Shown in pieces: positions 1-1,334 of a stretch of 1,334 bases of DNA. Positions within the stretch are counted from its first letter, which is position 1. Each line of letters opens with the position of its first letter. Where the stretch lies: assembly GCF_003334305.1 (NCBI RefSeq), contig NZ_QOWS01000058.1. One strand, 5' to 3'. The position numbers and the translations under genes are program-made. The DNA comes from Escherichia coli (GTDB lineage Bacteria; Pseudomonadota; Gammaproteobacteria; Enterobacterales; Enterobacteriaceae). The notes under the pieces were generated by a model that made no database searches, was not told where the DNA came from, and was given only the letters and a program-made list of their open reading frames with translations.

Positions 1-1334
1 CCGGACGGGCTTCGCAGCAGCCGGGAGTATGATGAGAAGGGAAGGCTGACGGCGGAGACCTCGCGCAGCGGTGAGACAACGCGGTACAGCTATGATGACC
101 CGGCGAGTGAGCTGCCGACAGGGATACAGGACGCGACGGGCAGTACAAAACAGATGGCATGGAGCCGTTACGGTCAACTGCTGGCCTTCACGGACTGCTC
201 GGGGTACACGACGCGGTATGAGTACGACCGGTACGGTCAACAAATCGCCGTTCACCGGGAGGAAGGCATCAGCACTTACAGCAGTTATAACCCGCGTGGG
301 CAACTGGTCAGTCAGAAGGATGCGCAGGGGCGGGAGACCCGTTATGAGTACAGTGCCGCAGGCGACCTGACAGCAACGATATCACCGGACGGTAAACGCA
401 GCACCATCGAATATGATAAACGCGGGCGTCCGGTGAGTGTGACGGAAGGCGGTCTTACGCGCAGCATGGGGTATGACGCTGCCGGGCGCATCACCGTGCT
501 GACCAACGAGAACGGCAGCCAGTCCACGTTCCGGTATGACCCGGTGGACAGGCTGACTGAACAGCGCGGTTTTGACGGCCGGACGCAACGTTACCACTAT
601 GACCTGACCGGAAAACTCACGCAGAGTGAAGACGAGGGGCTTATCACCCTCTGGCACTACGATGCGTCGGACCGCATCACGCACCGGACGGTGAACGGCG
701 ACCCGGCAGAGCAGTGGCAGTATGATGAGCACGGGTGGTTAACCACCCTCAGCCATACCTGTGAAGGCCACCGCGTGTCGGTCCACTACGGCTATGACGA
801 TAAAGGCCGCCTGACGGGTGAACGGCAGACGGTGGAGAACCCGGAGACAGGGGAGATGCTGTGGGAGCATGAGACGGGGCATGCGTACAGCGAACAGGGG
901 CTGGCGACCCGTCAGGAGCCGGACGGTCTGCCGCCGGTGGAGTGGCTGACGTATGGCAGCGGTTATCTTGCGGGGATGAAGCTGGGCGGAACGCCGCTGG
1001 TCGAGTACACGCGGGACCGGCTGCACCGCGAGACGGCCCGTAGCTTCGGCGGGGCGGGCAGTACAGCGGGGTACGAACAGGCCACGGCGTACACCCTCAC
1101 AGGGCAGCTACAGAGCAGGCACCTGAACCTTCCGCAGCTTGACTGTGACTATACGTGGAACGATAACGGACAACTGGTGCGCATCAGCGGCCCGCAGGAG
1201 TGCCGGGAGTACCGTTACAGCGGCACGGGAAGGCTGACGGGCGTCCACACTACGGCAGCGAACCTGGATATCGATATCCCGTATGCGACGGACCCGGCAG
1301 GAAACCGGCTGCCGGACCCGGAACTGCACCCGGA
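1..1334 (+). CDS. Rhs-family YD-repeat protein, conserved core region (internal fragment; 5' and 3' ends lie outside the window); polymorphic toxin / T6SS-associated effector family
   Basis: Seen in sequence: frame +1 (codon 1 = nt 1-3) has no TAA/TAG/TGA across all 444 codons. The translation contains at least 10 canonical YD-repeat units (consensus roughly Y-D-x-x-G-R-L-T/I) at about 21-residue spacing, plus several degenerate ones, and GC-rich codon usage (ctg, ccg, gcg, acg, cgc, ggc). Established knowledge: this pattern is diagnostic of the Rhs / YD-repeat family, and from memory the translation is clearly homologous to, but not identical with, E. coli K-12 RhsA-type core sequence. The specific paralog cannot be assigned without a database search, so no gene symbol is given. 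Confidence 0.95.
25..831 (+). repeat. Protein-level tandem YD-repeat array within the Rhs core (about 21 codons / 63 nt per unit; degenerate at DNA level)
   Basis: Y of the YD (or YD-like) motif falls at codons 10, 31, 57 (degenerate RYGQL), 75, 96 (degenerate YNPRGQL), 117 (YS), 138, 158, 179, 200, 220, 241 and 265, i.e. nt 28, 91, 169, 223, 286, 349, 412, 472, 535, 598, 658, 721 and 793. Spacing is 20-24 codons between canonical units. Two further units lie at codons 384-392 (YTWNDNGQL, nt 1150-1176) and 404-413 (YRYSGTGRLT, nt 1210-1239). Confidence 0.8.

Follow-up and report, generated by a model that had tools for sequence, protein, structure and literature searches.

One of the questions raised by a 1334-nt stretch of Escherichia coli DNA, analysed here over its whole length and called the window, is what a YD motif recurring about every 21 codons stands for. 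Does it build the wall of a shell that encloses a toxin, as proposed in the initial annotation? Is it the remnant of a gene that no longer makes a functional protein? Does the shell belong to another class of YD-repeat proteins, or does the periodicity reside in the DNA itself? Frame +1 of the plus strand is open at both ends, with no stop in 444 codons, the other five frames containing 3–29 stops each; the window has a GC content of 62.7%, and G, T, R, Y and D are abundant in the frame +1 translation.

The identity of the window can be settled by comparison with complete genomes. Over 1334 nt, it shows 100% identity to genes annotated as "RHS element core protein" on the chromosomes of many complete E. 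coli genomes, and 3712 of 5426 complete E. coli genomes match it, at a median of three places per genome. In strain AMSHJX01, the full gene has 4263 nt and encodes a protein of 1420 aa (WP_053266815.1), within which the window is placed in Table 1. Among the K-12 relatives, the rhsE pseudogene shows 82.6% nucleotide identity to window bases 739–1334, and the window protein is 76.6% identical to RhsD (residues 484–928) and 70.0% identical to RhsA (residues 480–917). By sequence identity, the window is therefore the central part of a known chromosomal Rhs core gene of E. coli, at the rhsE locus, that is already annotated. A large internal duplication, suggested by a seemingly out-of-register blastn match at 71% in the K-12 rhsD locus, was considered and rejected, this match being in fact to K-12 rhsA in register.

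Table 1. Features of the window, with positions counted from its first nucleotide
Feature	Position	Strand	Basis
Internal fragment of the E. coli RHS element core protein gene, rhsE locus	1–1334	+	Residues 492–935 of 1420 (WP_053266815.1)
Most regular part of the YD-repeat array, 13 units of 20–24 codons	25–831 (codons 9–277)	+	Register, autocorrelation, Pfam RHS_repeat, model strands, conservation
Enlarged loop in unit 2, YDDPASELPT, replacing the usual tight YDxxGRL turn	91–120 (codons 31–40)	+	Non-strand run in the model; no G at +4
Further shell wall as predicted, its repeats degenerate and its strands longer	832–1308	+	Pfam RHS_repeat at 386–419; model strands to codon 427
Predicted start of a loop between shell strands	1309–1334 (codons 437–444)	+	Model residues 859–892 without regular structure

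In AMSHJX01, the locus (L001) is flanked by pptA-yddH-nhoA-yddE and by the narZ operon, as is rhsE in K-12, and positions 1–13285 carry, in order, vgrG, a frameshifted Rhs core (77% identical to the window in nucleotide sequence), remnants of IS1 and ISAs1, the intact gene, a small open reading frame (dsORF-h1) and a further ISAs1 remnant, which is the H-repeat. Such an arrangement, with copies in decay, is typical of an Rhs island. The end of vgrG lies about 7.1 kb upstream of the start of the intact gene, and since the frameshifted Rhs gene and the IS remnants separate the two, the coupling to VgrG is one of neighbourhood only.

Rhs loci commonly contain truncated or frameshifted copies. Could the window itself derive from such a dead copy, either an Rhs pseudogene or an orphan piece of the core, in which the repeats persist but no functional cocoon protein is made? 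The immediate surroundings lend themselves to this idea, as the K-12 copy at the same rhsE locus is a truncated pseudogene of 2 kb, and a frameshift disrupts the Rhs core immediately upstream in L001. However, neither a stop nor a frameshift interrupts the 444 codons of the window (1334 bases, which cover only part of the gene), copies with 100% identity to it, such as that of WP_053266815.1, are annotated as intact genes for 1420 aa, and the full WP_053266815.1 protein scores above the curated equivalog cut-off of the family (2649.3 bits against the NCBIfam RHS element core protein equivalog RHS_core, NF041261, cut-off 2000, with residues 1–1260 aligned to profile positions 1–1261). A dead copy is thus improbable, and the gene to which the window belongs is probably intact.

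The same profile recognizes the window alone with 913.5 bits, colinear to profile positions 488–931, as expected for a fragment, and TIGR01643 (YD_repeat_2x) scores 122.6 bits on it (cut-off 15.8). The search with the RHS_repeat profile that had been suggested as a check of the repeat family returned nine Pfam matches in the window (PF05593, E from 5e-11 to 3e-3). In the full protein, the N-terminal plug DUF6531 is found at residues 49–126 (E = 3.3e-19), and the C-terminal plug, the Rhs-associated core TIGR03696, at residues 1183–1260 (E = 1.4e-23), together with a match to PF03527 and a DPIGL sequence at residues 1234–1238. Both plug domains and the DPxGL motif of type VI secretion system (T6SS) Rhs cocoon effectors are therefore present in the full gene, outside the window. 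The N-terminal 491 aa gave no match to a PAAR domain in Pfam. The extreme N-terminus, KPAARQGDMTRKG (residues 1–14, L001:7528–7570), resembles the prePAAR motif, which reportedly reads AARxxDxxxH, but a K replaces the H; a consensus GKPAARxxDxxxxG is conserved at the N-terminus in an alignment of homologues (A1, described below).

Downstream of the core, the composition of the gene changes: GC content is 60–71% over the core, and 31–41% in the C-terminal tip and the DNA that follows, from about L001:11300. The classic Rhs composite is thus present, with a GC-rich core, an AT-rich variable tip and a small downstream open reading frame, dsORF-h1 (149 aa), which begins 11 nt past the stop codon of the Rhs gene. 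The AT-rich tip (L001:11242–11787, residues ~1239–1420, after DPIGL) contains an HEFAH sequence of the HExxH type, and its match in Pfam is limited to a weak one to Peptidase_M91 (E = 0.021); these two features suggest a toxin of the zinc-metallopeptidase type. Neither the toxin tip nor dsORF-h1 was assigned to a family in NCBIfam or PADLOC.

How regular is the array, and where does it begin and end? Between codons 10 and 265, unit anchors can be placed at codons 10, 31, 54, 75, 96, 117, 138, 158, 179, 200, 220, 241 and 265, ten of which are literal YD and three degenerate (WS at 54, YN at 96 and YS at 117). The ten literal motifs compare with 2.25 ± 1.39 in 10,000 residue shuffles (maximum 9). 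Their spacing shows two large gaps, of 44 and 63 codons, and as the three degenerate units fill these gaps in register, the stretch comes to 13 units, separated by 21, 23, 21, 21, 21, 21, 20, 21, 21, 20, 21 and 24 codons in order. Autocorrelation of codons 9–277 with BLOSUM62 is strongest at lag 21 (z = 8.4), and harmonics appear at 42 and 62–63. The YD periodicity of 20–24 codons described in the initial annotation from codon 10 to codon 265 is therefore confirmed, and positions 25–831, where the array had been located, correctly bracket its most regular stretch, the array itself continuing beyond them.

The flanking motifs given in the initial annotation are overstated. The Y position is aromatic in all 13 units, and the D position is occupied by D, N or S in all of them. 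A G-(R/K/Q)-(L/I)-T sequence had been described after each YD: the strict pattern occurs in only 4 of the 13 units, but a relaxed form of it stands, with G at +4 in 10 units (G or D in 12), L, I or V at +6 in 10, and T at +7 in eight. The turn-like D/N-G segment that had been described farther along each unit fares similarly, a literal [DN]-G being found in 4 of 13 units and a glycine in 12. This segment can be retained as the second turn, the one that joins hairpins, but not as the tight turn, which is YDxxG.

Beyond position 831, the repeats become less distinct. No literal YD is found in 832–1308, though this region is still part of the Rhs core; units can be recognized near codons 296, 318, 336, 360, 384 and 406 (YS at 296 and 406), with a weaker periodicity (lag 42/20). 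The array runs on from the regular stretch to the end of the window, and in the full gene it extends in both directions; of the 20 literal YD motifs of that gene, 10 lie within positions 25–831. The regular array is the best-preserved part of a shell that spans residues ~130 to ~1180.

In an alignment of 32 homologues with 32–78% identity (A1), the units keep their Y, D, G and L positions in homologues of 32–65% identity. Departures from the consensus that are specific to one unit are conserved as well, at codons 54, 183 and 265 (unit 3 has W instead of Y, unit 9 has D instead of the turn G, and unit 13 has R or Y, respectively). As these departures persist across homologues, the units are old and positionally orthologous, and every hairpin is under a constraint of its own within the shell. 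The family is very large; at E <= 0.001 it counts 122,136 representatives out of 1.84 billion.

What structure does such an array adopt? Residues 7–438 of the window align colinearly to the solved shell of Tse5, at chain positions 395–824 (E = 1.2e-62). As chain B has 1121 residues and corresponds to Tse5 48–1168, the matched part is approximately Tse5 442–871, which lies inside the barrel, between the plugs at residues 48–124 and 1092–1168 that are given in the Tse5 paper. Ten further Rhs chains of known structure are matched by the window too, as are three chains of teneurins or teneurin-like proteins. According to the Tse5 paper, the shell comprises 40 beta-hairpins with the consensus YDxxGRLV, in which the turn of each hairpin is formed by DxxGR and the tyrosine points into the cavity, and the study of the Salmonella bongori and Advenella proteins likewise places the YD motif where a strand passes into a sharp turn.

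Structure prediction had been proposed as a further check, and an AlphaFold2 model was built for residues 61–1260, without the toxin tip, from a 33-sequence alignment (mean pLDDT 86.1, pTM 0.79; 87–95 as means of 10-residue blocks across positions 25–831). Each unit is modelled as a strand ending at the Y, a five-residue DxxGx turn, a second strand and a glycine-containing turn, which amounts to about 26 strands over the 13 units and 39 in the whole window, with a helix content of 1.4% in the window. Non-strand runs of at least eight residues are limited in the window to codons 31–40, 350–357 and 437–444, the first being the sole one within positions 25–831; at the other end, the last eight codons enter a 34-residue loop of the model. 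Searched against the PDB with Foldseek, the model superposes on Rhs cocoons, with Tse5 as top match (E = 8.5e-93, TMq 0.80, TMt 0.89, 31% identity), followed by Advenella Rhs, RhsA, Tse15, S. bongori Rhs, Tre23-Rhs and RhsP (TMq 0.60–0.76). T6SS Rhs cocoons take all of the first 14 places, with E values of 1e-51 to 1e-93 for this group, and TMq reaches 0.33–0.48 for teneurins and 0.34–0.53 for TcdB2-TccC3. Outside the window, the model shows an all-helical insertion of about 60 residues (1082–1144) in the C-terminal part of the core, and a long helix within residues ~255–295 that is followed by a low-confidence segment rich in S, A and P (272–295), probably disordered.

In the predicted structure, then, the YD hairpins form a closed spiral beta-sheet shell, and the window corresponds to a mid-barrel stretch of its wall, free of any foreign domain. 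The proposal that the repeats are the beta-hairpins of an Rhs shell wall is borne out by the two checks suggested for it, the profile search and the structure prediction (two strands per unit in the model), neither of which refuted it, and by the Tse5 alignment, and no evidence contradicting this structural reading was found. The further suggestion of an uninterrupted wall needs a qualification: no domain is inserted, but a 10-residue loop opens the tight turn of unit 2. The analysis fixes details of the annotation, namely the assignment of the window to residues 492–935, the role of YDxxG as the hairpin turn, and the status of the array as the best-preserved part of the shell. That the period, the repeat family and the structural role were all read correctly from the raw sequence, without tools, makes this window a clean positive control.

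How would such a protein work? Each 21-residue YD repeat would fold into one beta-hairpin (strand, YDxxG tight turn, strand, glycine turn), and successive hairpins would pair side by side into a continuous antiparallel sheet spiralling into a hollow cocoon, closed by the DUF6531 and Rhs-associated core plugs. Autoproteolysis, toxin encapsulation, T6SS delivery and cognate immunity are known for T6SS Rhs homologues. By analogy with Tse5, RhsA of Pseudomonas protegens and Rhs of Photorhabdus laumondii, an aspartyl autoprotease in the C-terminal plug would cut after DPxGL, and the variable, AT-rich C-terminal toxin would be retained within the cocoon; going by these homologues, a WP_053266815.1-type protein may be expected to encapsulate its toxin. 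The loaded cocoon would then be delivered on a VgrG spike by the T6SS into neighbouring bacteria, where it may be toxic, and the small open reading frame directly downstream may confer immunity on the producer, as in the related systems. What the analysis shows directly is the sequence identity, the membership in the family, the repeat register, the predicted fold and the gene neighbourhood. Taken together, it is very probable that the window encodes the central part of the Rhs core at the rhsE locus and that its repeats are hairpins of the cocoon wall, in a protein whose toxin, as in the homologues, would be autocleaved, encapsulated and delivered by the T6SS.

A less conventional role could be imagined for the regular stretch: it might be a preferred substrate of homologous recombination among Rhs copies, or make specific contacts with the cargo, or else the antisense open reading frames might be expressed. 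None of the results points to recombination, cargo contact or antisense expression, and such a role is very improbable compared with that of a shell wall.

There is next to no probability that the periodicity stems from a DNA-level feature (a tandem repeat or a recombination signal) or from an antisense open reading frame: the minus strand does hold open reading frames of up to 116 aa (window 342–1329), with only three stops in one of its frames, and short direct repeats exist, for example an exact 14-nt GGGAAGGCTGACGG at 39–52 and 1227–1240, but what these short repeats encode is one and the same peptide, GRLT. TRF detected no DNA tandem repeat in the window, no inverted repeats were found in it, its direct repeats being short codon-level echoes of the peptide repeat, and a search of the window against Rfam gave no match. 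The alternative-frame and antisense open reading frames (73–116 aa) show no NCBIfam match and no YD, and for this reason they are regarded as side effects of GC-rich coding DNA; the long antisense ones are probably a by-product of GC-rich (63%) codon usage. The repeat is a protein-level feature only. The two GGGAAGGCTGACGG copies encode the same G-R-L-T in units that are 396 codons apart, and their identical codons could be explained by chance or by gene conversion.

Finally, could the shell be that of another YD-repeat class, such as the BC type of Tc toxins, a WapA-like wall-associated toxin or a teneurin-like scaffold? The YD-hairpin fold is shared, and teneurins and TcdB2-TccC3 also appear among the Foldseek matches. 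However, T6SS Rhs cocoons come out best by a wide margin, with a TMq of 0.80 at 31% identity against at most 0.53 at 11–16%, the full protein exceeds the RHS_core equivalog cut-off, it carries the DUF6531 plug that characterizes T6SS Rhs proteins, vgrG is located nearby, and neither a TcA-like protein nor a beta-propeller part is found in the gene or its L001 neighbours. Membership in another class has a negligible probability, and the protein is best compared with these shells as a T6SS Rhs cocoon.

The spiral-shell principle is the same in the TcB-TcC component of Tc toxins (4o9x, 4igl) and in teneurin shells (6fb3), and it was first shown for the BC component, (Busby 2013 and Meusch 2014, both as cited elsewhere). 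A Tc cocoon is a four-turn assembly of two proteins with a beta-propeller gate, whereas WP_053266815.1 is a single polypeptide; TcdB2-TccC3 reaches a TMq of at most 0.53 and a TMt of at most 0.33 at 11–12% identity. Teneurin shells are empty scaffolds with an FN-plug, and the WP_053266815.1 protein belongs neither to the Tc nor to the teneurin group.

Closer to it are RhsA of P. protegens (7q97), Rhs-Tre23 of P. laumondii (7pq5), Tse15 of Acinetobacter baumannii (8uxt), the Advenella and S. bongori Rhs cores (8qja-d) and RhsP of Vibrio parahaemolyticus (8h8a/b), all of which form the same three-turn YD beta-cocoon, and are T6SS-associated with self-cleaved, encapsulated toxins. They are only 18–26% identical to the WP_053266815.1 protein, and differ from it in their toxins and in their N-terminal delivery modules (PAAR, VgrG fusion or clade domain). 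The closest solved cocoon is Tse5 of Pseudomonas aeruginosa (PDB 8cp6), with which it has in common a wall of YDxxGRL type, a DUF6531 N-plug and a DPxG C-plug. Their toxins are different, as Tse5-CT is a pore-former, while the tip of WP_053266815.1 carries HExxH instead. The helical insertion in the WP_053266815.1 model may be a further difference from Tse5.

The nearest relatives remain the E. coli Rhs core proteins themselves. Work on Rhs elements in this species goes back decades, and structures of several T6SS Rhs cocoons have become available since 2021. WP_053266815.1-type genes share with the E. coli family the GC-rich core, the AT-rich tip, the downstream open reading frame and the H-repeat/ISAs1 element; K-12 rhsE is truncated, whereas the genomic copies identical to the window are full length. 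There is no difference in kind, and the gene to which the window belongs is an allele or paralogue within this family. Its repeats are those of an ordinary E. coli Rhs shell, already known and of textbook character.
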